Part shown: piece after piece, positions 1,803-64,000 of the stretch
Position numbering within the stretch: position 1 is the first letter of the stretch
Layout: each line of letters opens with the position of its first letter
Assembly (NCBI GenBank): GCA_965199855.1
Contig: OZ241326.1
Span: forward strand, 2,279,682-2,343,681
Origin: a bacterium
Lineage (GTDB): Bacteria > UBA8248
DNA length: 64,000 bases
Direction of reading: 5' to 3'
Notes under the pieces: generated by a model
What the model saw: only the letters and a program-made list of their open reading frames with translations
Told to the model about the DNA's origin: nothing
Database searches by the model: none
Made by a program: the position numbers and the translations under genes

Positions 1803-4274
1803 ATGCTCCGGAATCTCCTCCCCATCCTGATGAAGATCGGCCTCATCTCGGACGAAATGATCAGGCCCCGCGATCTGCGGGGCTTCTCGCGCGCGGTCGT
1901 CTCCGTCATATCGGTGGCGTTCTCCTACTTTTTCGTGCACATCTCCTACTTCGGCCCGCCGCGCTCGGAAATCTTCAAGGGCGTCTATATTCTGGCGACC
2001 GCCGCGCTGTGCATCCTCGTCTATAAAAGCCGGCAGCGGCCCGTCCGCGAGGGCTTCGCCTGGCTGGACGAAATCTTCTCGCTCCTCGCCCTCGCCGCCC
2101 TGTGCGCGTCGCTCGCCCTGTGGCTCTACTGGGCCGCCTTCCACCGGGGCGGGCTGTGGAGCGAGTTCATGGTCGGGGCGGCGTGGCCCGTCGCCCTGGG
2201 CGGCGGGCTGTTCGGCGTCTTCCTGTATCGCCGCGAGGCCGCGCGGGAGCGCGTCCCGGAGCTCCCGACGCTCGCCGACTGGCTGTTCATCGCCGCCGCC
2301 GTCGCCCCCATCATCTGGTGGAACATCTACAACATCGAGCTCACCACGCGCATCGGCGGCCCCGTGCCCGCCTCGGTGGTCATCTACACCGCCCTGCTCA
2401 CGGCGGTGAGCTTCGACGTCGCGCGGCGGGTCATCGGCCCCGTCATCCCCTTCATCGGCTTCCTGTTTCTCATCTACACCTTCCGGCCCGTCGCGCAGAT
2501 CTCGCCGGGCCTCCTGTTCCACGACGGCTTCGGGCTCGACCGCGTGGCCGAGTTCCTCATGCTCGAGGCCGACGGCATCACCGGCCTCATCGTCGAGGTG
2601 TTCGCCACCTACATCGTCATCTTCGTGGTGCTCGGCGCCTTTCTGGAGAAGACGGGCCTCGGCGAGTTCCTCATCGACGCCACCTACCGGCTCACGGGGC
2701 AGAAGACGGGCGGCCCCGGCCTCACGGCCGTCATGTCGAGCGGGCTGTTCGGCATGATATCGGGCAGCGGCGTGGCCAACGTGGTGACGACGGGAACCTT
2801 CACCATCCCGCTCATGAAGCGGGTGGGCTACCGCTCCGAGTTCGCCGGCGCGGTCGAGGCGGCCGCCTCCACGGGCGGCGCCTACATGCCGCCCATCATG
2901 GCGGGCGCCGCCTTCCTCGTCGCGCAGCTCACCGAAACGCCCTATTTCGAGATCGTCAAAATCGCGACGCTGCCCGCCATCCTCTACTATCTCTCCGTGG
3001 GCTACATGGTCTATATCCGCGCCGTGCGGCGCGGGCTTCACGGCGTGCCCGCCTCGGAGCTGCCGCCGTGGAGCAAAATCGTCCCGCGCCTCCACTTCCT
3101 GCTGCCGATTCCGGTGATGGTGTATTACCTCGTCATCGGAGACTCCGCCTTCCTGGCGGCCTTCAAGACCATCTGCATCATCGTCATGCTGAAGTCCTGC
3201 GAACTGCTCTCGGCCTTCAAAACCCCGACGGCGGAGAAGACGGCGCGCCCGTTCCTGCTCATCTCCATCGTCTTCGGCGTCTTCTCCTATTACTTCGGGC
3301 TGAAGGTCGGCGCGCCCTTCTCCTGGTTCGCGGACACGCTGCGCGGGATGAACTGGGGAGACGGCCTGATGTGGACGATAGCCGCCTTCCTCCTCCTGAA
3401 GCTCGGCGAAATCCTCACGGCCGCCCTCCAAAGCGGCTCCTCCGCCGGCCCCGAATACGAAACGGGGCCCATCCTCTTCACGCGGCTGCGCGAATTCGTC
3501 CTCGAAATCATCAGAATCACCTGGGTCTCCCTGGAGGCCGGCGCGAGAAACACCCTCGTCATCGGCTGCATCGCCTGCGTTCTGGGCATCCTTCTTTCCT
3601 GCGCGACGCAGAGCGACCTGTCCGGGCGCATCTCCATCCTGCTGACGGAGTTCAGCTTCGGGCTTCTGCCGCTCACCATCATCTGGGTGATCATCGCCGG
3701 CTACATCGTCGGCATGGGCCTGCCCATCACGGCGAGCTACGTGGTGCTGGTCATCTTCGGCGTCATCGCGCTCACCAACCTGGGGATTCCCACGGTGCAC
3801 GCCCACCTCATCTGCTACTGGGTGGCCGTCGTGAGCGCGGTGACCCCTCCGGTCGCCCTGGCGGCCTACGCGGCGAGCGCCATCGCCGTCTCCGACCCGG
3901 TGAAGACCGGCTTTCAGGCGCTCAAGCTCGCCTCCTGGCTCTTCATCATGCCGTTTCTGTTCGTCTATACCCCGCTGCTCCTGAACGGCACGCCGACCGA
4001 GGTGGCCATCACCTTCGGGGCGTGCCTCGTCGGCATCGTCGGCTGGGCCGGGTGGATGGAGAATTTCATGACGCGCCCCGCCAACGGCGTCGAGCGCGCG
4101 CTGATGTTCGTGAGTTCGGTGTGCCTGCTCCTGCCCGTGGGAAATTTCGTGGTGTTCATCACCCCGATGGAGGGAGACCTGAGGTACGCCTCATACGCCG
4201 TCGGGCTGCTCGCCATCGCGGCGGCGCTCGTCATGCAGAGAACCCGCGCGGGCGGAAGCCCGCGCGCCGCCTGA
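1803..4274 (+). CDS. TRAP transporter fused (4TM/12TM) permease, TAXI-associated type
   Basis: 823-aa polytopic membrane protein. GPGLTAVMSSGLFGMISGSGVANVVTTGTFTIPLMKRVGY is characteristic of DctM-like fused permeases. Directly downstream of the TAXI receptor. Confidence 0.85.
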   Translation: MLRNLLPILMKIGLISDEMIRPRDLRGFSRAVVSVISVAFSYFFVHISYFGPPRSEIFKGVYILATAALCILVYKSRQRPVREGFAWLDEIFSLLALAALCASLALWLYWAAFHRGGLWSEFMVGAAWPVALGGGLFGVFLYRREAARERVPELPTLADWLFIAAAVAPIIWWNIYNIELTTRIGGPVPASVVIYTALLTAVSFDVARRVIGPVIPFIGFLFLIYTFRPVAQISPGLLFHDGFGLDRVAEFLMLEADGITGLIVEVFATYIVIFVVLGAFLEKTGLGEFLIDATYRLTGQKTGGPGLTAVMSSGLFGMISGSGVANVVTTGTFTIPLMKRVGYRSEFAGAVEAAASTGGAYMPPIMAGAAFLVAQLTETPYFEIVKIATLPAILYYLSVGYMVYIRAVRRGLHGVPASELPPWSKIVPRLHFLLPIPVMVYYLVIGDSAFLAAFKTICIIVMLKSCELLSAFKTPTAEKTARPFLLISIVFGVFSYYFGLKVGAPFSWFADTLRGMNWGDGLMWTIAAFLLLKLGEILTAALQSGSSAGPEYETGPILFTRLREFVLEIIRITWVSLEAGARNTLVIGCIACVLGILLSCATQSDLSGRISILLTEFSFGLLPLTIIWVIIAGYIVGMGLPITASYVVLVIFGVIALTNLGIPTVHAHLICYWVAVVSAVTPPVALAAYAASAIAVSDPVKTGFQALKLASWLFIMPFLFVYTPLLLNGTPTEVAITFGACLVGIVGWAGWMENFMTRPANGVERALMFVSSVCLLLPVGNFVVFITPMEGDLRYASYAVGLLAIAAALVMQRTRAGGSPRAA

Positions 4275-4301
4275 TTCATCCATCCCCCGAAAGGAGGCGA
4301 G

Positions 4302-4931
4302 ATGAGCGGCGCTCCTCCCCTCAGGCGCGTCCAGCACGTGGGTCTGAAAGTCCACGACCTCGACGAGGCGGTGAATTTCTACGGCGGCGTCATGGGGCTC
4401 ACCATCTCGGATCGCTACGAGCCGGGCGACAACCCCCACAATCCCTGGGGCATCTGCTTCATGCGCTGCGGCGAGGGGCATCACGAAATATCCCTCATCG
4501 CGTATCCCGAAGAAGCCGGCCTCTCGCCGAAGGAGGGCGGCATGAGAAAGCCCGAGGTCGGCCTCCACCACGTCGCCTTCGAGGTGGACTCCAGGGAGGA
4601 GCTGGAAGCCTGGGCGGCCCACGTCCGCTCGCGGGGAATCGACATCGCGGCGGGGCCGCTCGTCCACAGCCCGACGCACCCCGAGGGGGACGGCACCCTG
4701 GGCGAGAACCGCGCCTTTTACTTTCACGACCCCTCCGGAAACGGAATCGAGATTTTCTGCGACATGGCGCGGATGGACGCGGGCGCGAACCGGGTGAGCG
4801 AGGAATGGCATCGGGCGCGCCTGGAGCGGGACGGATACGCGCGCGACGCCGCGGACCCGCCCCCCGCGTGGCGGCCCGGCGTCTCCAGCATGGCGGGGGC
4901 GAAGGAGAAATTCGGCCGGCCCTCCTCCTGA
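4302..4931 (+). CDS. VOC-family (glyoxalase / extradiol dioxygenase fold) protein
   Basis: 209 aa. VQHVGLKVHDLDEAVNFYGGVMGL, GLHHVAFEV and FYFHDPSGNGIEIF match the paired VOC modules. AAGGAGG RBS upstream. Confidence 0.75.
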   Translation: MSGAPPLRRVQHVGLKVHDLDEAVNFYGGVMGLTISDRYEPGDNPHNPWGICFMRCGEGHHEISLIAYPEEAGLSPKEGGMRKPEVGLHHVAFEVDSREELEAWAAHVRSRGIDIAAGPLVHSPTHPEGDGTLGENRAFYFHDPSGNGIEIFCDMARMDAGANRVSEEWHRARLERDGYARDAADPPPAWRPGVSSMAGAKEKFGRPSS

Positions 4932-9043: not shown

Positions 9044-10192
9044 GTGAGGCAGAGGAAATACCCGGCCGTATTCATGCGCGGAGGCACGAGCCGCGCCATC
9101 TTCTTTCACGAGCGCGACCTGCCGAAGGCGCGCGCCGAGCGCGACGCCGTCTTCCTCAAGGCGCTGGGCAGTCCCGACCCGAACGGCCGCCAGCTGGACG
9201 GGCTGGGGGGCGGCGTCTCCTCCCTGAGCAAGGTCGCCGTCGTCGCGCTCTCCGAACGCGCGGACGCGGACGTGGACTTCACCTTCGCGCAGGTGGGCGT
9301 GCGGGAGAAAATCGTGGACTACGCGGGCGCGTGCGGGAACATATCGAGCGCGGTCGGCCCCTTCGCCGTGGACGAGGGGCTGGCGCCCGCGGAGGAGAAC
9401 GGTGCCGCCCTCGTCCGCGTCCACAACGCGAACACGGGGAAAATCTTCCACGCCCGCTTCCCGGTGGAGGACGGCGCGGCCGCCGTGGACGGCTCCTGCG
9501 AGCTGCCGGGCGTCTCCGGCGCGGGGGCGCGCATCACGCTCGAATTCATGGACCCGGGAGGCGCAGCCACGGGGAAGCTCCTGCCCTCGGGCGGCCCGGT
9601 GGACGTTTTCGATATCGAGGGGCTGGGAAGCGTGGAAGTCAGCATGGTGGACGCGACCAACCCGATGGCGTTCCTCCGCGCGAAGGACCTGGGGCTGAGC
9701 GGCGGAGAAGCCCCCGGCGCCATCGACGCCCGCGTCGAACTGATGGTGAACCTCGAGCAGATTCGCGCCGAGGCGGCCGTTCGCATGGGCATGGCGCGAA
9801 GCAGGCGGGAGGCCTCCGAGAGCGTCCGCGCGGTGCCGAAAGTCGCCCTCGTCGCGCCGCCGGCGGAATACGTGGACATCAGGGGCGAGGTCGTCCCGGC
9901 GGAGGCGTGCGACGTCGTGAGCCGCGTCGTCTCGATGGGCAAGACCCACCGCGCCTACGCGCTCACGGGGGCGATGTGCCTCGCGGTCGCCGCGCGGATT
10001 CCCGGCACCCTCGTTCACGAGGCAGCCCGGGGCGGGGCGGGCGACATTCGCCTGGGCCATCCCTCCGGCGTCCAGCGGGTGAACGCCCGGGTCTCCGCCT
10101 CTCCGCAGGGATGCGAGGCCGAGAAGGTCGTCGTCTATCGCACGGCGCGGAGGCTCATGGAGGGCCTCGTGTGCGTGCCCGCCGATTCGTGA
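9044..10192 (+). CDS. prpF: PrpF family protein (2-methylaconitate isomerase / AcnD-accessory-like)
   Basis: 382 aa. The N-terminus YPAVFMRGGTSRAIFF is the PrpF signature. Starts 2 nt after the aconitase stop. Confidence 0.8.
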   Translation: MRQRKYPAVFMRGGTSRAIFFHERDLPKARAERDAVFLKALGSPDPNGRQLDGLGGGVSSLSKVAVVALSERADADVDFTFAQVGVREKIVDYAGACGNISSAVGPFAVDEGLAPAEENGAALVRVHNANTGKIFHARFPVEDGAAAVDGSCELPGVSGAGARITLEFMDPGGAATGKLLPSGGPVDVFDIEGLGSVEVSMVDATNPMAFLRAKDLGLSGGEAPGAIDARVELMVNLEQIRAEAAVRMGMARSRREASESVRAVPKVALVAPPAEYVDIRGEVVPAEACDVVSRVVSMGKTHRAYALTGAMCLAVAARIPGTLVHEAARGGAGDIRLGHPSGVQRVNARVSASPQGCEAEKVVVYRTARRLMEGLVCVPADS

Positions 10193-10210
10193 GGCGGGGC
10201 GGGGCCGCGC

Positions 10211-11173
10211 CTACGCCTTTCGCCCGCCCCTCTTCTCTCCCGTCACCAGCCAGACGCCGGCCGCCGTCAGCGCGGCTCCCGCCGCCAGACGCCAGCTCAC
10301 CCGCTCGCCCAGATACAGGGCGCTGCCCAGCACGCCGACGATCGGGTTCAGGAACAGGAACACCGACACCCGCGCGGGCGAATACTTCAGGAGCAGGTAG
10401 CCCCAGTAGGCCAGCAGAAGCGCGCTCGAAGCCACGCCCATATAGACGACCGCGAGAATCTGCGCGCCCCCGAAGGAGAGAATCCCGAAGCCGGGATCGG
10501 ACGAGGCGAGGAGAAAATAGGCCGGCGCGCCGATGAGCATGGCCCATCGGGAGATGGACACCACGTCCGAGTTCCAGAGGCAGCGGCGGTAGTGAATCGT
10601 CTGCGCCGCCCAGAGGACGGCGGCGAGGAGGATGTAGGAATCCGCCCAGAGCGCGCCGTCCGCCCCGAGGCGGTTCGAGAACACCGTGACAGTTCCTCCC
10701 ATCGCCAGGGCGAAGCCCGCCGCCCGCGCCGGGGTGACGCGCTCGCCCGACAGAAACGCCGCGCCCAGCAGCATGACCCAGATCGGCTGCGAATAGAGCA
10801 GCACCGAGGCGCGCGCGGCGGCCGTTCCGAACATCCCCTGATAGAGGAACCAGATATAGACGTTGTGCAGAAGGCCGCTCAGCGCCCGGTGCCCCTTCTC
10901 CTTCCAGGCGCTCTTGTGGGTCGCCCGGTCGGGGGCGCCCAGGAGAAGGCCGTAGATCGTCAGGGTGAGGACGGCCGCGGAGCAGCGCATCCAGATGAGG
11001 CCGAAGGGGGTGAGCCCCCCGTAGGCGCCCTTGATGACGGGCTGCGCCATCCCCCAGATCAGGGTGAGGAGCAGCGAGCCGAACACCAGCTCGAGCGGCG
11101 CTCCCGCGGACGGCTGCCGGACGCCCGGGCGGCCGCTCAACCGGCTTTCCCGGAAGCGCGGGGCCGCCCGCAA
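10211..11173 (-). CDS. EamA/DMT-family transporter
   Basis: Maximal ORF 320 aa with about 10 hydrophobic helices in two EamA-like halves. The true start may be internal. Confidence 0.75.
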   Translation of the reverse strand: MRAAPRFRESRLSGRPGVRQPSAGAPLELVFGSLLLTLIWGMAQPVIKGAYGGLTPFGLIWMRCSAAVLTLTIYGLLLGAPDRATHKSAWKEKGHRALSGLLHNVYIWFLYQGMFGTAAARASVLLYSQPIWVMLLGAAFLSGERVTPARAAGFALAMGGTVTVFSNRLGADGALWADSYILLAAVLWAAQTIHYRRCLWNSDVVSISRWAMLIGAPAYFLLASSDPGFGILSFGGAQILAVVYMGVASSALLLAYWGYLLLKYSPARVSVFLFLNPIVGVLGSALYLGERVSWRLAAGAALTAAGVWLVTGEKRGGRKA

Positions 11174-11473
11174 GTCTCGATGCGGACGTTTTCAGCCCCC
11201 CTGACGCGGGCGATCATCCGACCGCCTCCGCGGGCGCGCCCCTGAAGCCCTCCTCGCGGGAGAGAGGCTCCGGCCCCGGGGCGCGCGCTCCGGGGCGGGA
11301 AGTGAACGTGGTCGCATCGAAATTCCACCCGTGAAGCCCCTTCCGCGATTTTCCGCCTCCCCGCCTCCCGGATCGGCTCCGGGCGAGAATCCCACAGGAA
11401 GCGCCGCTTCCACAAACCATTTTCCCGGCCGGGCGTGAAGCGCGCCCCACCCGCGACGCCCCTCGCCGCCCGC

Positions 11474-11502
11474 TTGATTCGCGCGGGGGATGGGGCTAGA
11501 TT
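11474..11502 (+). promoter_or_regulatory. sigma70-like promoter candidate for the MBL hydrolase gene
   Basis: TTGATT (11474-11479), 17 nt, TAGATT (11497-11502). If used, it excludes the track start at 11435 and favours ATG 11528 or 11600. Confidence 0.3.
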
Positions 11503-11599
11503 GAAAGCCTCTATCGACGCCAGCGGCATGAGTGACGCGGAGCATTCCTCCGGACAGGAGCGCGTGAACTTTTCACCCTTCGACAGGAAAGGCGCCTAC

Positions 11600-12421
11600 A
11601 TGGAAACCCAGGACTGGTATTCCGTCAACGAATTCGCCCCGGGCAGCTACCAGATTACCGAAGGCGGCCGCTTCAACATGCTCCTTCTCGTGGGAGACGA
11701 GAAGGCGGTCGCCATTGACGGCGGCATCGGGGTCGGCGACCTGAGAAAACTCCACGAGAGCATCACGGACAAGCCCATCGACTTCATCCTCACCCACACC
11801 CACTGGGATCACCTGGGCGCGGCGTGGCGGTGGGAGAAGGTGGGCGTTCACCCCGTCGGCAGGAGTCTGCTCGCCAACGACTTCTCCAAGCTCGAAAAAG
11901 CCTTCGTGAACACGTGGAAGACGAACGGAAACGCCTTTCCCGACTGGTTCGACGAGGAGACCTACTCCATCAGGCCCGCCGCGTTCGGCTGGACGCTCCG
12001 GGAGGGCGACTCCTTCGACCTGGGCGGCAGAAAATTCCGCGTCTATGAGACGCCCGGGCACTCGCCGTGCAGCATCTCGCTCTACGACGAGCGCGAGAAG
12101 ATTCTCGTATCGGGCGACCTGATCCGCTGCGAGGAATGCCTCTTCCTCCAGGTGCCGACGGCCGTGCTCTCCGACTACGCGCCCTCGCTGCGCAAGATGG
12201 AGAAGGTGGCGCGGGAAAACGAGGTGCGCTGGATCACGTCGGGACACACCGCCCCCTACCCGGACCCCTCCATCATCGGCGAGCTGGCCCAGAACATGGA
12301 GGAGCTCGAAGCGGGCGCGCACGACCCGCCCGCCAAGGTGGACGGCGGCGCGTGGGGCGAGGTGGACGAGTACGTCTTCCCCCGCGTGAAGGTGTGGATT
12401 CAGGATCACGCGAGAAAGTAG
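11600..12421 (+). CDS. MBL-fold metallo-hydrolase
   Basis: HxHxDH motif ILTHTHWDHLGA, later TPGHSPCS. Start chosen at ATG 11600 (AGGAAAGG upstream). ATG 11528 is also possible. The 11435 start looks like a GC-driven extension. Confidence 0.75.
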   Translation: METQDWYSVNEFAPGSYQITEGGRFNMLLLVGDEKAVAIDGGIGVGDLRKLHESITDKPIDFILTHTHWDHLGAAWRWEKVGVHPVGRSLLANDFSKLEKAFVNTWKTNGNAFPDWFDEETYSIRPAAFGWTLREGDSFDLGGRKFRVYETPGHSPCSISLYDEREKILVSGDLIRCEECLFLQVPTAVLSDYAPSLRKMEKVARENEVRWITSGHTAPYPDPSIIGELAQNMEELEAGAHDPPAKVDGGAWGEVDEYVFPRVKVWIQDHARK

Positions 12422-12454
12422 CGGCGCGGCGAAAACAGCGGAGGGCAAACGACA

Positions 12455-14401
12455 ATGAGCGCCCCGGACATCATCTGGCGTCCGAACGAGGATTTTCTGA
12501 CGAACAGCCACGTCGCCAGGCTGATGAGGAAGCTCGGCATCGCCGACCACCGGGAGTTTCTGAAGTGGTCGGTTCGGGACATCCGCCGCTTCTGGGAGGT
12601 CGTCCTGGAGGACATGGGACTCGCGTGGTACAGGCGCTATGACGAGCTTCTCGACATGAGCGGCGGCTTCCCCTGGGCGAAATGGTTCGTCGGCGGGGAG
12701 ACGAACATCGTCCTGAACTGCATCGACCGCCACCTGGAGAGCGGCCGCAGGGATCAGACCGCCCTCGTCTGGGAGAGCGACGCGGGCGAGGTGCGCCAAT
12801 TCACCTACGCCGAGCTCTCGGCGGAGGTCTCCCGCCTGGCCTGCGCCATGCGCGGGATGGGGCTGGGGCGCGGAGACGTGGCGGGCGTGTTCCTGCCCAT
12901 GGTGCCCGAGGCCGCCATCGTCATGTATGCGTGCTTCAAGACGGGGGTGGCCGTCCTGCCCGTGTTCTCAGGCTTCGGGCCCGAGGGGCTGGCCGAGCGG
13001 CTCATCCACGCGGAGGCGCGCATCCTCTTCACGGCGGACGGCGCGGTTCGCCGGGGCAAAAAGGTTCCCCTGAAGGGGACGGCGGACGCCGCCCTCGAGC
13101 GGGCCTCGAAGGTGGAGAAGGTGGTGGTCGTCCGCCGCTCGGGCGATGCGGCGCCCATGCGCGCCGGGCGCGACGTATACTGGGAGGACTTCACGGAGGG
13201 CCAGGCCGCGGAGGCGGAGACCGCGCGGCTTCCCGCCGACGCCGTCTCGATGATCATGTACACCTCCGGCACCACCGGCAAGCCCAAGGGAACCGTCTAC
13301 ACCCACGCCGGGCTGATGAGCGGCCCCGGGCGCGAACTCCGATACTGCCTGGACATGCGCGAGGGCGACGCGATTTTCTGGGTCACGGACTTCGGCTGGG
13401 TCATGGCGCCCTACGAGCTGGTGGGGGCGCACTTCAGCGGCCATTCCTGCCTCCTCTACGAGAGCGTGCCGAACCACCCGGCGCCCGACCGCCTCTGGCG
13501 CATCGTGGAGAGGCACCGGGTCAGCCACCTGGGGCTTTCGCCCACGGCCGTTCGCGTGCTGATCAGCGCGGGCGACGAATGGGTGGAGAAGCGCGATCTC
13601 TCCTCCCTGCGCGTGCTGGCCTCCACGGGCGAGCCCTGGGACCCGGAATCCTACATGTGGTATTTCGAGAAAGTGGGCGGGGGGCGGTGTCCCGTCATGA
13701 ACATTTCGGGCGGCACGGAAATCGGCGCCTGCCTGCTCCAGCCCCTGCCCGTCATGGAGCTGAGCCCCTGCACGCTGGGCGCCCCCGCCATGGGAACGGA
13801 CGCGGACGTGTTCGGCGAGGACGCCCGGCCGGTGCGCGGCGAGGTGGGCCACCTCGTTCTCAAGCAGCCCCTCCCCTCGCTCACCAACGGCTTCTGGAAG
13901 GAGCCGGAGCGCTACCTGGAGACCTATTTCTCCCGCTGGGAGGGCGTCTGGTATCACGGCGACTGGGCGAAGGTGGACGAGAAGGGCCTCTGGTATCTCT
14001 ACGGACGCTCGGACGACACCATCAAGGTGTCGGGCAAGCGCGTGGGCCCCAGCGAGATAGAATCCCAGCTCATCAAGCACCCGGACGTCATAGAGGCCGC
14101 CGTCGTGGGAACGCCGCACCCGGTGAAGGGCGAGGGCCTCACCTGCTTCGTCGTCACGCGCGACTCCCGCGAGCCGGGCGACGCCCTGCGCGAGGAGCTC
14201 AAGGATCAGGCGGCGCGATACCTGGGCAAGAGCCTGCGCCCCGACGAGGTGCGCTTCGTCCGCGCCCTGCCCAAGACCCGCTCCGCCAAAATCGTGCGCA
14301 GCGCGATCAAGAAGGTCCATCTGGGCCAGCCGGTGGACCACATGGACCTCAACTCGCTCGAAAACCCGGCGCACCTCGACGCCATCCGGGAGGCGCTCTA
14401 G
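12455..14401 (+). CDS. AMP-forming acyl-CoA synthetase (acetyl/propionyl/acetoacetyl-CoA synthetase family), copy 1
   Basis: 648 aa. YTSGTTGKPKG, GDWAKVDEKGLWYLYGRSDDTIKVSGKRVGPSEIE and LPKTRSAKIVR motifs. Confidence 0.85.
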   Translation: MSAPDIIWRPNEDFLTNSHVARLMRKLGIADHREFLKWSVRDIRRFWEVVLEDMGLAWYRRYDELLDMSGGFPWAKWFVGGETNIVLNCIDRHLESGRRDQTALVWESDAGEVRQFTYAELSAEVSRLACAMRGMGLGRGDVAGVFLPMVPEAAIVMYACFKTGVAVLPVFSGFGPEGLAERLIHAEARILFTADGAVRRGKKVPLKGTADAALERASKVEKVVVVRRSGDAAPMRAGRDVYWEDFTEGQAAEAETARLPADAVSMIMYTSGTTGKPKGTVYTHAGLMSGPGRELRYCLDMREGDAIFWVTDFGWVMAPYELVGAHFSGHSCLLYESVPNHPAPDRLWRIVERHRVSHLGLSPTAVRVLISAGDEWVEKRDLSSLRVLASTGEPWDPESYMWYFEKVGGGRCPVMNISGGTEIGACLLQPLPVMELSPCTLGAPAMGTDADVFGEDARPVRGEVGHLVLKQPLPSLTNGFWKEPERYLETYFSRWEGVWYHGDWAKVDEKGLWYLYGRSDDTIKVSGKRVGPSEIESQLIKHPDVIEAAVVGTPHPVKGEGLTCFVVTRDSREPGDALREELKDQAARYLGKSLRPDEVRFVRALPKTRSAKIVRSAIKKVHLGQPVDHMDLNSLENPAHLDAIREAL

Positions 14402-17663: not shown

Positions 17664-18409
17664 CGCCCGACTTCTCCCTCCTCGAGTGGGCCTTCGCGCT
17701 GGCGGCGGCGTTCTGCAGCGGCTTCCTCGTGCGCACGTTCGGGGCGGGGGTGGGCCTTACCATCACGCCGTTCCTCATCCTCGCGTTCTCGCCCACCTTC
17801 TCGCTCGGCCTCATCGCGCTCCTCAGCTGCTGGTCGGGGCTGGGCGCCGTCCCCGACCTCTGGGGCAAGTGGAACCCGCGCTACGTCCTCCTCTTCGCCC
17901 CCGGCGTCCTGCTGGGAATCGCCGGCGGCGTCTGGCTGCTCACCCTGCTTCCGGGGACGGGGCTGAAAATCCTCATCGGCGTCATCTGCCTCTGCCTCGC
18001 CTCCTGGCAGACGATCGTCGAAATCCGGGGGCGCCCCTTCGAGATTCCTCCCCTGCCCGCGTGGCAGGGGGCGGGCTTCGGCTTCATGAGCGGGCTCTGC
18101 TCCGCGCTCGCCAACAGCGGGGCGATCTTCCTCACCCCCGTCCTCATCAGCCAGAGGCTGGACAAGCGCGCCCTCGTCAGCACGATATGGATCCTCTACT
18201 CGGTGATGAACCCCATCAAGGTCGCCGCCTACTGGCGCGTCTCGGTCGTCACGGCGGACACCTTCTGGGCGAGCCTGGTCGGGCTTCCCGCGCTGTGGCT
18301 GGGGCTGAGGACGGGCGCCCGGGCGCAGGAGAGGCTGAGCGGGCGCGCCTTCAACCTGTGCGTGCTGGGCATCGCCCTGGGCGGCTCGATTCGCCTGCTG
18401 TTCGGCTGA
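17660..18409 (+). CDS. TauE/SafE (DUF81) family anion exporter, copy 2
   Basis: In-frame GTG 17660 overlaps the upstream stop (GTGA). 249 aa. FLVRTFGAGVGLTITPFLILAF and SGLCSALANSGAIFLTPVLI repeats. It is the C-terminal part of track ORF 17075-18409. Confidence 0.7.
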   Translation: MTPDFSLLEWAFALAAAFCSGFLVRTFGAGVGLTITPFLILAFSPTFSLGLIALLSCWSGLGAVPDLWGKWNPRYVLLFAPGVLLGIAGGVWLLTLLPGTGLKILIGVICLCLASWQTIVEIRGRPFEIPPLPAWQGAGFGFMSGLCSALANSGAIFLTPVLISQRLDKRALVSTIWILYSVMNPIKVAAYWRVSVVTADTFWASLVGLPALWLGLRTGARAQERLSGRAFNLCVLGIALGGSIRLLFG

Positions 18410-18487
18410 AGGCCCGCGCCCCCGCGTCACGCGCGAGAACGCGATGGCGCTTTACGGGTTCGGGGAGCGAGGGGGGAGGAGAGATTT

Positions 18488-18516
18488 TTGACGGGGAAAC
18501 ATTCAGTTGGCATAAT
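18488..18516 (+). promoter_or_regulatory. sigma70-like promoter candidate for the ATPase-PIN operon
   Basis: TTGACG (18488-18493), 17-nt spacer, CATAAT (18511-18516), about 85 nt upstream of the ATPase start, at the point where composition drops. Confidence 0.45.
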
Positions 18517-18600
18517 TGCTAAGGATTCGATTAAAGTAGCCGGAAGAATCCGACCCGTCAAGGCGAGGCTCTGCCGTCTCCGGTTGCTCATGGGGAGCGC

Positions 18601-19974
18601 GTGATGTTCAAGCATATCAACCTCAAAAACTTCAAGGCGTGGCGGGAGCTCGACATCCCCCTAGGCCGGAGAATTACGGGACTTTTCGGGACCAACAGCT
18701 CGGGCAAGAGCAGCCTGATCCAGTTCCTGCTCATGCTAAAAGAGACGAAGAACAACCCAGATCGCAACCTGGTCCTGGATTTCGGGGAATTCGGCGAGTT
18801 GATTAATCTGGGCAGCTTCGGCGACGTCATCCACGGAAAAGACGAAAAGCAGAAACTGGAATGGCGTTTGGATTGGAATGCCAAGGAGGAGGTCAAACTC
18901 CAAGATACCACCAAGGGCCGAAACAAAAACCTGGTTTCTTCCAAAGAGCTTTCAACAGAATCAGCTGTGACAATGCCGAAAGGGTCAAAGTCTCCGAAAA
19001 CCCTGTTCATCAAATACGCAATCGGAGATATGACTTTCAAAATCGAGACGAAAGCTAAGCAGGAAAGCAGTTTTCGCCTTAGCTCATCCGGCTCGGATTT
19101 CGAGTTCCGCCGAATCCAGGGCAGGCCCTGGCAACTGCCCGGCCCCATTAAAACACATCTATTTCCCGACCAAGCGAAAACGTATCACCAGAATGCCGAT
19201 TTACTAAGCGATCTGGAGGTAGCGTACGAAAAACTGTTTGATAGCGTTTTCTATCTCGGCCCGCTCCGAGAATATCCACACCGGCAATACAACTGGAGTG
19301 GCGGCAGTCCTCTCGACGTAGGCGTTCGAGGCGAACTCACCATGAACGCGATCCTCGCCGCATCGGAAAATGGAAGCGACTATCAGATGAGAAAAAGGGG
19401 CAGAAAACGCTCTTTTCAGGAAGTAGTCGCCATGAGACTTCAGGAAGTGGGGCTCGTCCATTCCTTTTCGGTAGCCGAAATCGCCAAGGGCTCCAACATC
19501 TACCAAGCGAAGGTGTCGGTGAAAAAAGAGAGCCCGGAAGTCCTTTTGACGGACGTGGGCTTCGGCGTATCCCAGGTTCTTCCGGCCGTCGTACTCCTGA
19601 ATTATGTCCCGAAAAATTCTACGGTCATCCTTGAGCAACCGGAAATTCACCTGCATCCCAGGGTTCAAAGCGAGGTGGCGGACGCTATCATCGCCATTGC
19701 CGAAACGAGGGATTTACAAGTGATCGTAGAAAGCCACAGCGAGCACATTCTGCGCCGGCTTCAGCGGCGGGTGGCCGACGAAACCATACAGGCGGACTTG
19801 GTGAAACTCTATTTCGTATCGCAGGAGAACGGCGAGGCGCGCCTTTCGGACATCGGCCTGAACGAATACGGAGAAATACAGAACTGGCCTGAGCATTTCT
19901 TCGGCGACGATATGGAGGAAATCTCGGAGACCAGAAAGGCCGCTCTGAAGCGCAGAATGGCCGCCGGGCAATGA
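18601..19974 (+). CDS. ABC/OLD-like AAA ATPase (AAA_15/AAA_21-type head, DUF3696-like C-terminus)
   Basis: 457 aa (GTG 18601; ATG 18604 with GGGGAG RBS is equally possible). Walker A GTNSSGKSS, YLGPLREYP, GFGVSQVLP, Walker B VILEQPEIHLHP, H-loop ESHSEHIL, C-terminal NWPEHFFGDD. Codon usage and GC differ from the flanks. Confidence 0.85.
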   Translation: MMFKHINLKNFKAWRELDIPLGRRITGLFGTNSSGKSSLIQFLLMLKETKNNPDRNLVLDFGEFGELINLGSFGDVIHGKDEKQKLEWRLDWNAKEEVKLQDTTKGRNKNLVSSKELSTESAVTMPKGSKSPKTLFIKYAIGDMTFKIETKAKQESSFRLSSSGSDFEFRRIQGRPWQLPGPIKTHLFPDQAKTYHQNADLLSDLEVAYEKLFDSVFYLGPLREYPHRQYNWSGGSPLDVGVRGELTMNAILAASENGSDYQMRKRGRKRSFQEVVAMRLQEVGLVHSFSVAEIAKGSNIYQAKVSVKKESPEVLLTDVGFGVSQVLPAVVLLNYVPKNSTVILEQPEIHLHPRVQSEVADAIIAIAETRDLQVIVESHSEHILRRLQRRVADETIQADLVKLYFVSQENGEARLSDIGLNEYGEIQNWPEHFFGDDMEEISETRKAALKRRMAAGQ

Positions 19975-20462
19975 CGGACAGGTTTGTCATTGACACCAAC
20001 GTCTTGGTCGTGGCGAACGGAAAGAGTCGTCAAGCCGATCCCAAATGCCAAATCGCTTGTATCGAGATGTTGGAGGGAGCTACCAAAGGGAAACGGGTTG
20101 CTCTCATCGACACCTGCAATCTCATCATGGATGAGTACAAACTTCATTGCAGCTTTGCGGGAGAACCCGGCCCCGGGAACGCCTTCTTCAAGTTCCTGCA
20201 TGACAACGAGTTTTCACAAAACAGCGTCATTCCCGTCCCGGTTCAAAAAACGCCGGACAAGGCCGGTGGATTCTCGAACCTTCCCCCGAACAAACTCGAC
20301 AGGAGCGACAGGAAATTTCTGGCCGTCGCAAAGGCAGGGAGCGGGCGAATCGTCAACGCCACGGATTCGGACTGGTCGCAACATGCCGAGTTCATCGCCT
20401 CCGTCGGCGTCCAAGTCCGCGAACTCTGCCCGCAATGTCTGAAACAAAATGAGATAGGATAG
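19971..20462 (+). CDS. PIN-domain nuclease-like protein
   Basis: 163 aa. ATG overlaps the ATPase stop (ATGA). FVIDTNVLVV N-terminus with acidic residues D8, D54/E55, D110/D113 (DRSDRKFLAVA) and D132/D134 (NATDSDW), spaced as in PIN domains. The family call comes from motif spacing only. Confidence 0.65.
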   Translation: MTDRFVIDTNVLVVANGKSRQADPKCQIACIEMLEGATKGKRVALIDTCNLIMDEYKLHCSFAGEPGPGNAFFKFLHDNEFSQNSVIPVPVQKTPDKAGGFSNLPPNKLDRSDRKFLAVAKAGSGRIVNATDSDWSQHAEFIASVGVQVRELCPQCLKQNEIG

Positions 20463-20584
20463 AAACCAAACGTCGTAATCTTCGTTTTCCATCCCCCCCC
20501 GCAATCAGCCGAAAGAGGCGCTCTTTCCGGCGCGTTGTCCGCCATCCGGCTGAAACCTTGCGTTTTTCCCATGCGTCCGCGCGG

Positions 20585-20862
20585 TGCGCATTTGCCCGCA
20601 TTTGCGCGTTGCGCGCCGTAAAGCCGATGCGTCAGAATCCCGCGCGTGAGGGCCGGAGAGAATTCTCCCGCCGTTCCCGGAGGATGGGACGACGTATTCA
20701 ACGCGCGTGAAACAGATATGGCGGCGCGAATGAAAATCATCCCGCATTTCTGCAAATTCAGACAAATTCACAGCTGTTTCAAAGCTTTTTCAGACAAATT
20801 CATGGCCCTTTCACAACCTTTTTCGGCGCGGGGAAAAGGCGGAAGGAGGCTTTCGTCATCCC
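20585..20862. repeat. copy A of a long imperfect inverted repeat (partner at 25935-26353)
   Basis: The reverse complement matches copy B. Hand alignments give 79/88 for RC(20585-20672) vs 26265-26352 and 51/55 for RC(20748-20802) vs 25988-26042. AT-richer than the flanks (22/60 G+C at 20741-20800). Ends are approximate. Confidence 0.85.
20757..20802. repeat. two identical direct 14-mers TTCAGACAAATTCA, 32-bp period
   Basis: 20757-20770 and 20789-20802 are identical. The same arrangement occurs in reverse complement in copy B. Confidence 0.9.
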
Positions 20863-25934: not shown

Positions 25935-26353
25935 ACGAGAACCTCGCCGCCTTTCGATTCCCGCCGTCAATTTGTCGAAAAAGGTCGTGAATTTGTCTGA
26001 AATAGCTGTAAAACAGCTGGGAATTTGTCTGAATTTGCAGAATAAAGAAGGATGATTTTTCACTCGCGCCGACATATCCGTTCAACGCGCGTCATTCCGG
26101 CGCAAGCCGGAATCCGGCGTTGCTTCGTCGGCTCCGGGTTGCGGCGATCCCTCCTCTCCGTCGAGGTTGACGCCGCAACGACGATGAAGCGCCGCAAGCC
26201 TTCAACGCGCGTCAAACATATCAGCGCCTTTTCATCATTCCCCATCCTTCCGTCCTCCCGGAGCGGCGGGAGGATTCTCTCCGGCCTTCACGCGCGGGAT
26301 TCTGACGCATCGGCCTGGCGGAGCGAAACGCGCAAATGCGGGCAAATGCGCGC
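25935..26353. repeat. copy B of the long imperfect inverted repeat, carrying ~150 bp of extra palindromic sequence
   Basis: Reverse-complement match to 20585-20862 (see copy A). The 14-mer modules lie at 25988-26001 and 26021-26033. Extra material at about 26094-26241 is absent from copy A. Ends are approximate. Confidence 0.85.
25988..26033. repeat. two direct copies of (T)GAATTTGTCTGAA, 32-bp period, flanking a 6-bp hairpin AGCTGT-AAA-ACAGCT
   Basis: 25988-26001 TGAATTTGTCTGAA; 26021-26033 GAATTTGTCTGAA; hairpin 26004-26018. This is the reverse complement of the 14-mers in copy A. Confidence 0.9.
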
Positions 26354-26412
26354 CGGGGGCGATTGACAGCCCTCCGCTCCCCAAATCCCGCCAATCGCTG
26401 GCCGCGCGAGGG

Positions 26413-62794: not shown

Positions 62795-63239
62795 GCTCCT
62801 CTACTTCGCCTACGGAGCGAACCTGAACGCCGCCCACATGAAAATCCTCTGCCCCCGAAGCGTCCCCGCGGGCCCCGCGCGTCTGGAGAATCACCGCCTC
62901 GCCATCGCCCTGCCCGCCGCGGCGCCCCGAAGCGCCCCCGGCTGGGCGACCGTGACGCCCGAGGCGGGCGCGCGCGTCCCGGGCGCGCTCTTTCGCCTCC
63001 ATCCCGACGACCTGCCCGTCCTGGATCGCTTCGAGGATTTCCCCACGCTCTACGGGCGCGAAACCCTGGAGGTCGCGGCGGGAGAGGGCGCGGCGCAAGC
63101 CATGCTCTACGTCATGCGGGGGCGCCTGCGGGCGGCGCGCCCGACGGCGCGATACGTGGAGCTGATCCGGGAGGGATACGAGGATTTCGGCCTGCCCCCC
63201 GCCGCGCTGGACGCCGCGCTGGCGGAGGTTCGCTTCTGA
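62772..63239 (+). CDS. gamma-glutamylcyclotransferase (AIG2/GGCT-like) family protein
   Basis: In-frame ATG 62772; 155 aa. LLYFAYGANL N-terminal motif and ALFRLHPDDLPVLDRFE. Confidence 0.7.
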   Translation: MTTSATPELLYFAYGANLNAAHMKILCPRSVPAGPARLENHRLAIALPAAAPRSAPGWATVTPEAGARVPGALFRLHPDDLPVLDRFEDFPTLYGRETLEVAAGEGAAQAMLYVMRGRLRAARPTARYVELIREGYEDFGLPPAALDAALAEVRF

Positions 63240-63252
63240 GGAGTGATAGTTC

Positions 63253-63935
63253 ATGGTGGCGAGACGCAAAAAGTACGATCCGGCGGATCCCGAAGCGGTG
63301 GCCGCAAGAAATCGCGTTCACACGATCATTGATTCCATTGGGTCGGAAGATATTGTGGCGACCATCAAAAAGGCCCCCAGTTTACGCGGCATGTTCATGG
63401 GATACGTAGCAGAGGAAATGTTCGAGAAATACGTCCTCCGAAACTATGAGTTCATTCAATCGGAGGATATTGAAACGCATGACGATCACGATCGACGCCT
63501 CAACAAATCAGATCGAACCATTCGCTTCCGGGGCCGGTTCTATTCCGTTCAGTTGAAATCCGTCCAAACGAACAGCATCAAGCGCAACCTGGAAACCGGC
63601 CTTTTGCAGGCCGACGTTCAAAATGATGCGTCAGACGCGAGAACCGTTCATTTGCCAAACGGAAGCAGCCTCATCACCACCTGCTATGTAAAAGGGGAAT
63701 ACGATGTTCTGGCGGTACCGATGTTCCCGTTCACCGGTTCCTGGAATTACGCCTACAAGCGAAACGTTGACTGCCGAAAAACCAAAAGCAAAAATACGGC
63801 CCGGAGGACGCGCAATACCTTCTGGCGACGACCGAAGCAATCACTTGGCCGCTCACGAATGACTGGCGAATGGACTTGTTCGACCTGCTCGACGATCAGA
63901 TAGGCTCGCGTAGCCAATCCGCGAAATTGGAATAG
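63253..63935 (+). pseudogene. restriction-endonuclease-like (possible PD-(D/E)xK) hypothetical gene, interrupted by a 1-nt frameshift in an A5 run
   Basis: Frame 1 (63253-63903) is protein-like up to ...NYAYKRNVDCRK, then becomes basic junk (TKSKNTARRTRNTFWRRPKQ). The +2 frame opens right after a TGA at 63768-63770 and reads NQKQKYGPEDAQYLLATTEAITWPLTNDWRMDLFDLLDDQ... to TAG 63933-63935. One extra A in the run 63777-63781 joins them. Possible nuclease core KSD...YSVQLKS. Low GC (24/60 at 63421-63480). The function call is weak. Confidence 0.5.
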
Positions 63936-64000
63936 GATATTTTCTTCTGATGGTCTTCGCGCCTGAAGATCAGGAAATAGGAATGGTTCTTTCGCGCGTG

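Follow-up and report, generated by a model that had tools for sequence, protein, structure and literature searches.

A two-gene ATPase-PIN islet in an uncultured high-GC bacterium as a probable stand-alone member of the HEC-03 anti-phage system

HEC-03 (Hma-embedded candidate 03) is composed of an ABC ATPase and a PIN-domain protein; its representative from Pseudomonas cichorii ATCC 10857 was tested in Escherichia coli, where it lowered plaque formation by orders of magnitude for at least two phages, both genes being needed, and where its induction was toxic (Payne, Hughes, Fineran & Jackson, bioRxiv 10.1101/2024.01.29.577857). The system has been named in PADLOC-DB since 2023, and a literature search found no later mechanistic study or renaming of it. 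The present analysis concerns a low-GC islet within a 64-kb stretch of bacterial DNA (contig OZ241326.1 of assembly GCA_965199855.1, positions 2,279,682 to 2,343,681); this whole stretch is referred to below as the window, and positions are given in its coordinates unless they belong to a named relative. The islet contains two overlapping genes, for an ATPase (ORF1) and a PIN nuclease (ORF2), which an initial annotation, made from the sequence alone, had considered an uncharacterised and possibly novel defence pair. We estimate at approximately 85% the probability that the islet is a horizontally acquired cassette of about 2 kb, made up of a promoter and two translationally coupled genes, which constitutes an intact HEC-03 anti-phage system; the part of this reading that concerns mechanism we infer.

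The assignment is carried by matches to PADLOC-DB v2, in which both proteins were recognized over almost the entire profile. ORF1 matched PDLC04148 (HEC-03B) at an E value of 3.8e-192 and 637 bits, with residues 2-454 aligned to positions 1-454 of 458, and ORF2 matched PDLC04147 (HEC-03A) at 2.8e-52, with residues 5-155 aligned to positions 3-153 of 159. The component labels are swapped between the sources: in PADLOC-DB the PIN protein is HEC-03A and the ATPase HEC-03B, and in the preprint (bioRxiv 10.1101/2024.01.29.577857) the reverse. The Pfam search proposed by the initial annotation returned for ORF1 the three families it had named, AAA_15 (5e-24), AAA_21 (2e-17) and DUF3696 (1e-7), while NCBIfam gave no match for ORF2 and nothing useful for ORF1. 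As the matches in these two libraries are generic, the pair would have seemed novel from them alone; a routine PADLOC run would annotate it as HEC-03.

A direct comparison with the P. cichorii system gave the same result. The ATPase of the window is 50% identical to its P. cichorii counterpart over the 399 residues available, and the PIN protein is 40% identical; gene order (ATPase, then PIN) and the overlap between the genes are the same. The two systems thus share both full-length proteins, an ABC ATPase with a DUF3696 tail and a VapC-like PIN. They differ in that the pair in the window stands alone between TauE and EamA transporter genes and is not embedded in Hma, although such embedding is the context of discovery and is not demanded by the PADLOC model; in addition, the host of the window has a GC content of ~69%, and the P. 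cichorii PIN protein carries Glu at the position of D8. In a sequence search of the PDB, neither protein had a close relative of solved structure: the ATPase hits were confined to local stretches of OLD and PtuA, and the profile of the PIN protein gave nothing meaningful. Judged by these comparisons, the pair is an intact, full-length and ordinary member of an already known system. The suggestion that the pairing might be new was therefore abandoned, and the term "uncharacterised" holds for the mechanism only, since the pair has a name and its homologue has been challenged with phages. The features of the islet are as follows:

18410..20527, no strand: low-GC islet, between the stop codon of TauE copy 2 (18409) and the sequence held in common with the relative L085
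18416..18473, + strand: apparent remnant of the 3' end of an Amidohydro_2 gene, aligning to the last ~58 nucleotides (nt) of the gene in the relative L081 (1001-2125 there; G+C at third codon positions, GC3, 0.89)
18488..18516, + strand: putative sigma-70-like promoter, TTGACG-17-CATAAT with an extended -10 TG, 10 of 12 consensus matches
18592..18597, + strand: putative ribosome-binding site GGGGAG, read from the sequence, 6 nt 5' of ATG 18604
18604..19974, + strand: HEC-03 ABC-type ATPase, 456 amino acids (aa), by PDLC04148, Pfam, an AlphaFold2 (AF2) model and 50% identity to the P. cichorii protein
19971..20462, + strand: HEC-03 PIN-domain nuclease, 163 aa, by PDLC04147, an AF2 model and 40% identity to the P. 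cichorii protein

The composition of the islet sets it clearly apart from its surroundings, as the initial annotation had noted. Its GC content is 0.537, compared to 0.694 +/- 0.022 (minimum 0.628) for all non-overlapping segments of the same size, a distance of ~7 standard deviations, and it forms the sole internal GC trough of the 64 kb; the hand counts of G+C reported earlier were exact (31/60 at 18601-18660 and 26/60 at 18901-18960, against 46/60 at 18301-18360). The same is seen in GC3, which is 0.65 for ORF1 and 0.67 for ORF2 and reaches 0.96 in TauE2 and 0.91 in EamA on either side. When the borders were refined by alignment to relatives, the foreign cassette proper was found to extend from ~18474 to ~20488 and to contain the promoter and the two genes, and nothing else. 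As previously stated, no integrase or transposase is present in or beside the islet; neither is a tRNA gene. No flanking direct-repeat target duplication was found around it, and an Rfam scan gave no match in the islet or the adjoining sequence. With a size of ~2 kb, a predicted promoter of its own, tight borders and a location in an uncultured high-GC lineage, the cassette offers a clean minimal natural example of HEC-03.

The two open reading frames described earlier, with their ATGA overlap at 19971-19974 (ORF1 stop, ORF2 start), are indeed present, and through this overlap the PIN gene is probably translationally coupled to that of the ATPase. ORF1 had been given 457 aa; such a frame does exist if the GTG at 18601 serves as the start (18601-19974, + strand), but the ATG at 18604, giving 456 aa, is the likely one, because the database gene call (P0121) has 456 aa and because the alignment to the HEC-03 profile starts only at the second residue of the 457-aa form; the putative ribosome-binding site is also suitably placed for it. 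ORF2 occupies 19971-20462 on the same strand and encodes 163 aa. The near-consensus promoter reported ahead of the pair was also recovered, 88 nt 5' of the ATPase ATG; in this region three promoter-like sites were observed, as compared to 0.7 expected from shuffled sequences.

Beyond the PIN gene, at 20508-20529, lies a 22-nt hairpin-forming insert, AGCCGAAAGAGGCGCTCTTTCC, which is missing from the otherwise 99%-identical L085. It begins 46 nt past the PIN stop codon and has no T-run behind it.

All the motif strings quoted for ORF1 in the initial annotation were found in the protein: GTNSSGKSS, GFGVSQVLP, the Walker B string VILEQPEIHLHP, ESHSEHIL and NWPEHFFGDD. They correspond to a Walker A motif at G29-S37, a signature-like GxG motif at D317-P327, a Walker B motif at T340-P352 and an H-loop at E376-H381; a beta-rich Insert 1 spans residues ~48-180 (85-162 is the beta-rich stretch of the AF2 model), and the DUF3696 tail, at ~396-455, comprises NWPxxFFGD and a C-terminal helix (437-455). 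The AF2 model of the ATPase is of moderate quality (pLDDT 72). Its fold matches were headed by OLD (6p74), retron/Septu PtuA and GajA, followed by Rad50/SMC/RecN heads, with E values of ~1e-11 to 1e-9. These model matches confirm a predicted fold of the ABC type, not AAA+, and the label "AAA ATPase" given initially had to be replaced accordingly. Across relatives, GxNSxGK[ST]S, DVGFGVSQ, hhhhEQPEIHLHP, ESHSEH and NWPxxFFGD are invariant in at least 78 of 81.

While the earlier assignments of the H-loop and the signature were reasonable, the Walker B motif is unusual. The Walker B of ABC ATPases normally carries D-E, the second residue usually being the catalytic glutamate; here the corresponding pair is E344-Q345 (window 19633-19638), and hhhhEQPE was seen in all ~78 HEC-03 ATPases examined. 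As the glutamine takes the position of the catalytic glutamate, the sequence suggests an ATP-binding switch that would hydrolyse slowly, and not a motor.

For ORF2 as well, the features quoted previously were all found, namely FVIDTNVLVV and the acidic residues D8, D54/E55, D110/D113 and D132/D134. Its AF2 model, built with 32 homologues, is of high quality (pLDDT 89.7, pTM 0.87), and the top ~34 PDB matches of this model are almost all PIN domains, including SSO1118, FitB, VapC, SMG6, HARP/PRORP and Regnase. Among 68 usable homologues from other genomes, D47, D113 and D132 are present in 68/68, E55 in 67/68 and D8 in 67/68, the one exception for D8 being Glu. The acidic residues lie at the end of β1, in helix 51-59, at the start of helix 111-122 and after the β strand 126-129, a spacing and placement that agree with those of the canonical PIN D-E-D-D set of FitB and VapC; D8, E55, D113 and D132, together with D47 and D134, are the putative catalytic residues.

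The PIN family has a further invariant feature, two cysteines at C26 (window 20046-20048) and C153 (20427-20429), which form a possible disulfide or partial metal site. A zinc site made of C26, C30, C153 and C156 was considered and rejected, as C30 and position 156 vary. Such an invariant cysteine pair is not known from VapC.

The initial annotation had advised collecting homologues of ORF1 and inspecting their neighbours. At least 584 ATPase relatives exist among species-representative genomes, and 80 loci were retrieved, from phyla that include Nitrospinota, Acidobacteriota, Alpha- and Gammaproteobacteria, Thermodesulfobacteriota, Cyanobacteria, Planctomycetota and Gemmatimonadota, as well as from Mycobacterium. 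A PIN homologue follows on the same strand, 0-78 nt past the end of the ATPase alignment, in 76 of the 79 loci with room downstream; in the remaining three, the PIN gene is 1.3 kb away in one and absent from two. The two genes are therefore co-conserved, and the PIN gene is the conserved 3' neighbour. The PIN family itself comprises 956 clusters (50% identity) at E<=1e-10, and among the 150 best-scoring nearly all are stand-alone proteins of ~160 aa. Full-length relatives at ~40% identity are carried by conjugative or mobilizable plasmids of Aeromonas, Azotobacter and Rhodococcus, where the ATPase is annotated merely as "DUF3696 domain-containing protein". Four close full-length relatives were found among 2.9 M viral contigs; in phage genomes, the ATPase matches were only partial and distant. 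Linkage to known defence genes, the second point raised there, was modest in the sampled loci: Hma was a neighbour at ~3 loci, type III restriction-modification at 2 and a DISARM-like system at 2, and most copies stand alone, as in the window.

Departures from this arrangement were few. In L061, a 1.3-kb insertion (11317-12622) separates the ATPase gene from the PIN gene. Two long matches, P0466 and P0438, were considered as natural ATPase-PIN fusions and rejected, their ATPase parts being truncated or internally deleted; they are probably the result of frameshifts or decay.

The history of the locus was followed in host relatives found via EamA (79-99% identity); the EamA protein is 64% identical to that of a Tectimicrobiota relative. 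In three of these, L081, L082 and L015 (EamA 93%, 93% and 84%), TauE2 is followed by an intact, host-like Amidohydro_2 gene and then by HEC-03. Their cassette DNA is 74-82% identical to that of the window and has a similarly low GC of ~0.54, and homology to it covers 18416-20472 of the window. Since 18416-18473 aligns to the 3' end of the L081 Amidohydro_2 gene, the lineage of the window would seem to have lost this gene by deletion. Another relative, L084 (EamA 86%), is without HEC-03 and has at the same place an 874-aa NB-ARC/NACHT-TPR protein (9195-11819, GC 0.45) and a pair of short ORFs; a gene of the NB-ARC/NACHT-TPR kind also adjoins EamA in L081 (9121-11721). This NLR-like STAND gene of the junction (~870 aa) had no match in PADLOC. 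Finally, L085 and the window share 99% identity between ~20489 and 26000; below ~20489 (window numbering), L085 diverges and has a gene of the VapB type (PSK_trans_fac, 9351-9608). As relatives carry different cargo there, be it HEC-03, a VapB-like gene or a STAND gene of the NLR type, these alignments identify the TauE|EamA junction as a small variable defence hotspot with presence/absence and swapping of cargo. Taken together, the foreign composition, the presence or absence at one junction in relatives and the occurrence of relatives on conjugative plasmids support horizontal acquisition of the cassette; the pair is not a feature of this locus in all relatives with host-like composition, being missing from L084 and L085 and foreign in its GC3. 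The view that it represents an acquired defence pair of an ABC/OLD-type ATPase and a PIN effector is thus supported by the HEC-03 models, the 50% and 40% identities, the folds, the co-conservation and the presence/absence pattern.

Two further observations were made around this junction. An 87-aa fragment matching the PADLOC candidate PDC-S11 is found in L082 at 4197-4460. In addition, imperfect inverted repeats at 20582-20822 and 25979-26355, with arms of 111 nt at 88% and 64 nt at 89% and a 32-nt tandem duplication in each arm, flank a block of ~5.2 kb that runs from EamA to the gene for adenine glycosylase. It is this same block that is inverted relative to TauE/HEC-03 in L015, L081 and L082. 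The window has no further copy of the repeat; within the set L001-L086, its sole detected occurrences were in L085 and L086, which are the closest relatives.

Of the characterised systems, the one whose ATPase is closest to that of the window is Menshen. The ATPase matched the NsnB model at 8.8e-63 (profile positions 1-334 of 345), the HEC-03 score being three times higher. Both proteins have a DUF3696 tail and carry GxG where an ABC signature would be expected, in both the second acidic residue of Walker B is replaced by an amide (E-Q in the window, E-N in NsnB), and in both the partner is PIN-like (the PIN protein here, the N-domain of NsnC there). It has been predicted that NsnB uses its DUF3696 tails to grip the N-domain of NsnC, which is PIN-like and inactive, in the manner in which PtuA dimers hold PtuB (PMC12065111); the PtuA-PtuB arrangement has been seen structurally. 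The window differs from Menshen in several respects. No gene for NsnA (ParB-DUF262, ParBDB) is found in the islet, which has two ORFs only and transporter genes on its flanks; the NsnC model gave no match to ORF2; the PIN protein is a stand-alone one of 163 aa, without a C-terminal toxin domain and with the D-E-D-D residues that are lost in the inactive PIN domain (inPIN) of NsnC; and the ATPase has ~110 more insert residues than NsnB. Our literature searches found no description of a kinship between HEC-03 and Menshen.

Other systems are related more loosely. Septu (PtuAB) and the PtuAB of retron I-A likewise combine an OLD/AAA_15-type ABC ATPase with a small nuclease, and PtuA is among the best fold matches; however, the effector is an HNH nuclease in PtuB and a PIN in the window, no retron is found at the locus, and the sequence similarity to PtuA is weak and local (2e-10 in PADLOC, 2e-4 against PDB chains, and 32 bits for the NCBIfam PtuA model against a cut-off of 500). 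PARIS (AriAB) and Gabija (GajAB) also employ a defence ABC ATPase of the AAA_15/AAA_21 type, and GajA is among the top fold matches. Here the similarity (2.8e-27 to AriA, ~1e-11 to GajA) lies mostly in the Walker B/H-loop region, and the AriA models score far under HEC-03, PDLC02979 matching mainly residues 304-384 and PDLC02980 residues 25-384 at 1e-16; the window has neither a Toprim domain or partner (AriB Toprim/DUF4435) nor a GajB helicase. With VapBC the pair has in common the PIN fold and a set of four conserved acidic residues whose spacing is that of VapC and FitB. It has no VapB antitoxin gene, the gene 5' of PIN being the 456-aa ATPase, and its PIN protein falls below the thresholds of the Pfam PIN models. 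PrrC and RloC resemble it in that an ABC ATPase controls an RNase in phage defence, as may be the case in the window, and the ligase linkage described below would echo the theme of PrrC versus T4 Pnkp/Rnl1. PrrC and RloC differ from it in carrying a nuclease of a kind other than PIN as a fusion with the ATPase, and no sequence match to the pair was seen.

The linkage in question was found in part of the HEC-03 family. At ~26 of the 80 loci, a conserved gene of 215-250 aa lies immediately next to the PIN gene and has the same orientation, the alignments being offset by -22 to +116 nt (L004, L005, L007, L010-L014, L020, L022-L024, L028, L031-L033, L035, L037, L039, L040, L042-L044, L053 and L056). 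Four of the third-gene proteins match the Pfam family RNA_ligase PF09414 (1e-17 to 3e-20), and aligned members share KLDGxN, EGVVxR and CKSVR. The same triplet is present on RefSeq plasmids of Aeromonas veronii (conjugative; a three-gene locus of this species is NZ_AP022291.1, 62255-64883) and Azotobacter chroococcum, independently annotated as a DUF3696 protein, a 177-aa hypothetical protein and an "RNA ligase family protein"; the ligase genes lie at 6928-7629 in L136 and at 8927-9619 in L137. L009 has the ATPase and the ligase, and no PIN. The HEC-03 preprint makes no mention of a ligase (bioRxiv 10.1101/2024.01.29.577857), and literature searches found no description of a link between HEC-03 and an RNA ligase. 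A paper on HARP and RNA ligase was considered as the same association and rejected: the ligase there belongs to a different family (Rnl3), and there is no ATPase.

Cleavage by metal-dependent PIN nucleases is expected to yield 5'-phosphate and 3'-OH ends, and it is on such ends that ATP-dependent RNA ligases act. Such ends would suit the ligase, which could therefore reset or buffer HEC-03, and its linkage in other family members points to RNA as the target of the PIN protein. Since NsnB is the closest characterised relative of the ATPase and its tails are predicted to clamp the PIN-like domain of NsnC, we propose that ATPase dimers or oligomers would hold the PIN protein through their C-terminal DUF3696 tails. 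A phage cue, sensed via the variable ATPase inserts, might then alter the ATP-bound state, upon which the PIN protein would be released or activated and would cut RNA (tRNA, rRNA or mRNA); translation would thereby be stopped and the infection aborted. The toxicity of overexpression fits an effector that harms its own cell. More tentatively still, and with more doubt than confidence, HEC-03 may be viewed as a reversible RNA-cleaving module linked to Menshen, in which a poorly hydrolysing, NsnB-like ATPase docks a live PIN via DUF3696 and a ligase reseals the RNA in about a third of the loci, the window representing the ligase-less form. The RNA ligase, the E-Q Walker B and an NsnB-like tail facing an active PIN together predict an RNA substrate with ends that a ligase can reseal. 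These observations, made at the level of the family, are leads for the mechanism of HEC-03 and not discoveries about the window.

An unlikely alternative to the proposed RNA cleavage is that the PIN protein cuts DNA, as do PIN-like nucleases of the FEN/Mut7-C type, and destroys phage DNA directly, with no RNA cleavage or abortive infection. Some members of the PIN-like superfamily are indeed DNA nucleases, and the partner nucleases of related ABC ATPases are often directed at DNA (GajA, OLD, the HNH of PtuB). The best fold matches of the PIN model, however, are RNases (VapC, FitB, SMG6, HARP/PRORP and Regnase), an RNA ligase gene is joined to the operon in about a third of the family loci, and toxicity upon overexpression fits damage to the cell's own RNA. 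An additional scenario, which is not mutually exclusive with defence, is that the pair is chiefly an addiction module of the toxin-antitoxin kind, in which the ATPase would be the proteinaceous antitoxin of a VapC-like PIN toxin and the module would stabilise the locus or a mobile element. The fold of the PIN protein, the toxicity of HEC-03 induction in E. coli, the occurrence of the pair on conjugative plasmids beside AbiE and Hok/Gef modules, and the VapB-type antitoxin gene at the same junction of the 99%-identical L085 would all agree with it. Nevertheless, the homologue protects by several logs against at least two phages, with both genes required, a 456-aa ABC ATPase with invariant nucleotide-binding motifs far exceeds the needs of an antitoxin, and Septu, PARIS, Gabija and Menshen, all of them sensor-effector systems, have a parallel architecture; we thus consider a chiefly addictive role quite unlikely.

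Two other explanations were rejected. According to the first, which we hold to be very improbable, the cassette is the fragment of a decayed three-gene Menshen system (NsnABC), its PIN-like protein being an inactive docking domain and the pair non-functional. This would account for the match of the ATPase to NsnB (9e-63), and the N-terminal part of NsnC is a PIN-like domain predicted to bind the DUF3696 tail; but HEC-03 scores 637 bits against 211 for NsnB, the stand-alone form of the PIN protein prevails among the 150 best-scoring clusters of its family and retains the acidic residues which the Menshen inPIN has lost, both ORFs are intact and of full length, and the islet has no NsnA gene. 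Hardly credible in our view is a housekeeping pair of atypical composition, that is, a repair ATPase akin to RecF, RecN or SbcC with an RNA-processing PIN. Weak matches of the ATPase to the N-terminal P-loop regions of SMC_N, RecF and Rad50 might be cited in its favour, yet these span just ~40 residues around Walker A and lie far under the family cut-offs, and neither protein hit a well-characterised housekeeping family. Moreover, the pair does not occur at this site in L084 and L085, which are close relatives, is patchily distributed over many phyla and on plasmids, and has a GC3 ~0.3 lower than that of host genes.

Several points weigh against the interpretation of the islet as an acquired, functional HEC-03 cassette that acts on RNA. 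The only Pfam match of ORF2 is PIN_3, at an E value of 0.14 and below threshold, and the fold matches of its model are distant (Foldseek E 3e-3 to 7e-2, TM 0.4-0.55). In the other genomes, of ~66 neighbouring genes only few match known defence proteins, and of ~134 nearest neighbours only a handful match PADLOC models. The cassette in the window and those of its close relatives are without a ligase, so that the case for RNA as the target is built on other members of the family. The putative promoter is a consensus match. Because HEC-03 occupies the same locus in three diverged relatives, it is an old resident, passed on largely by vertical descent since an older acquisition, and not a recent insertion. 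The trigger, the oligomeric state, the contact between ATPase and PIN, and the substrate are proposals, and phage defence is known from the P. cichorii homologue in E. coli and would apply to the organism of the window by analogy.

A second dip in GC content (0.56) starts at the edge of the window, over 63001-64000. It includes a low-GC ORF of 216 aa (63253-63903, + strand) that has no Pfam match, and may be the start of another acquired island.

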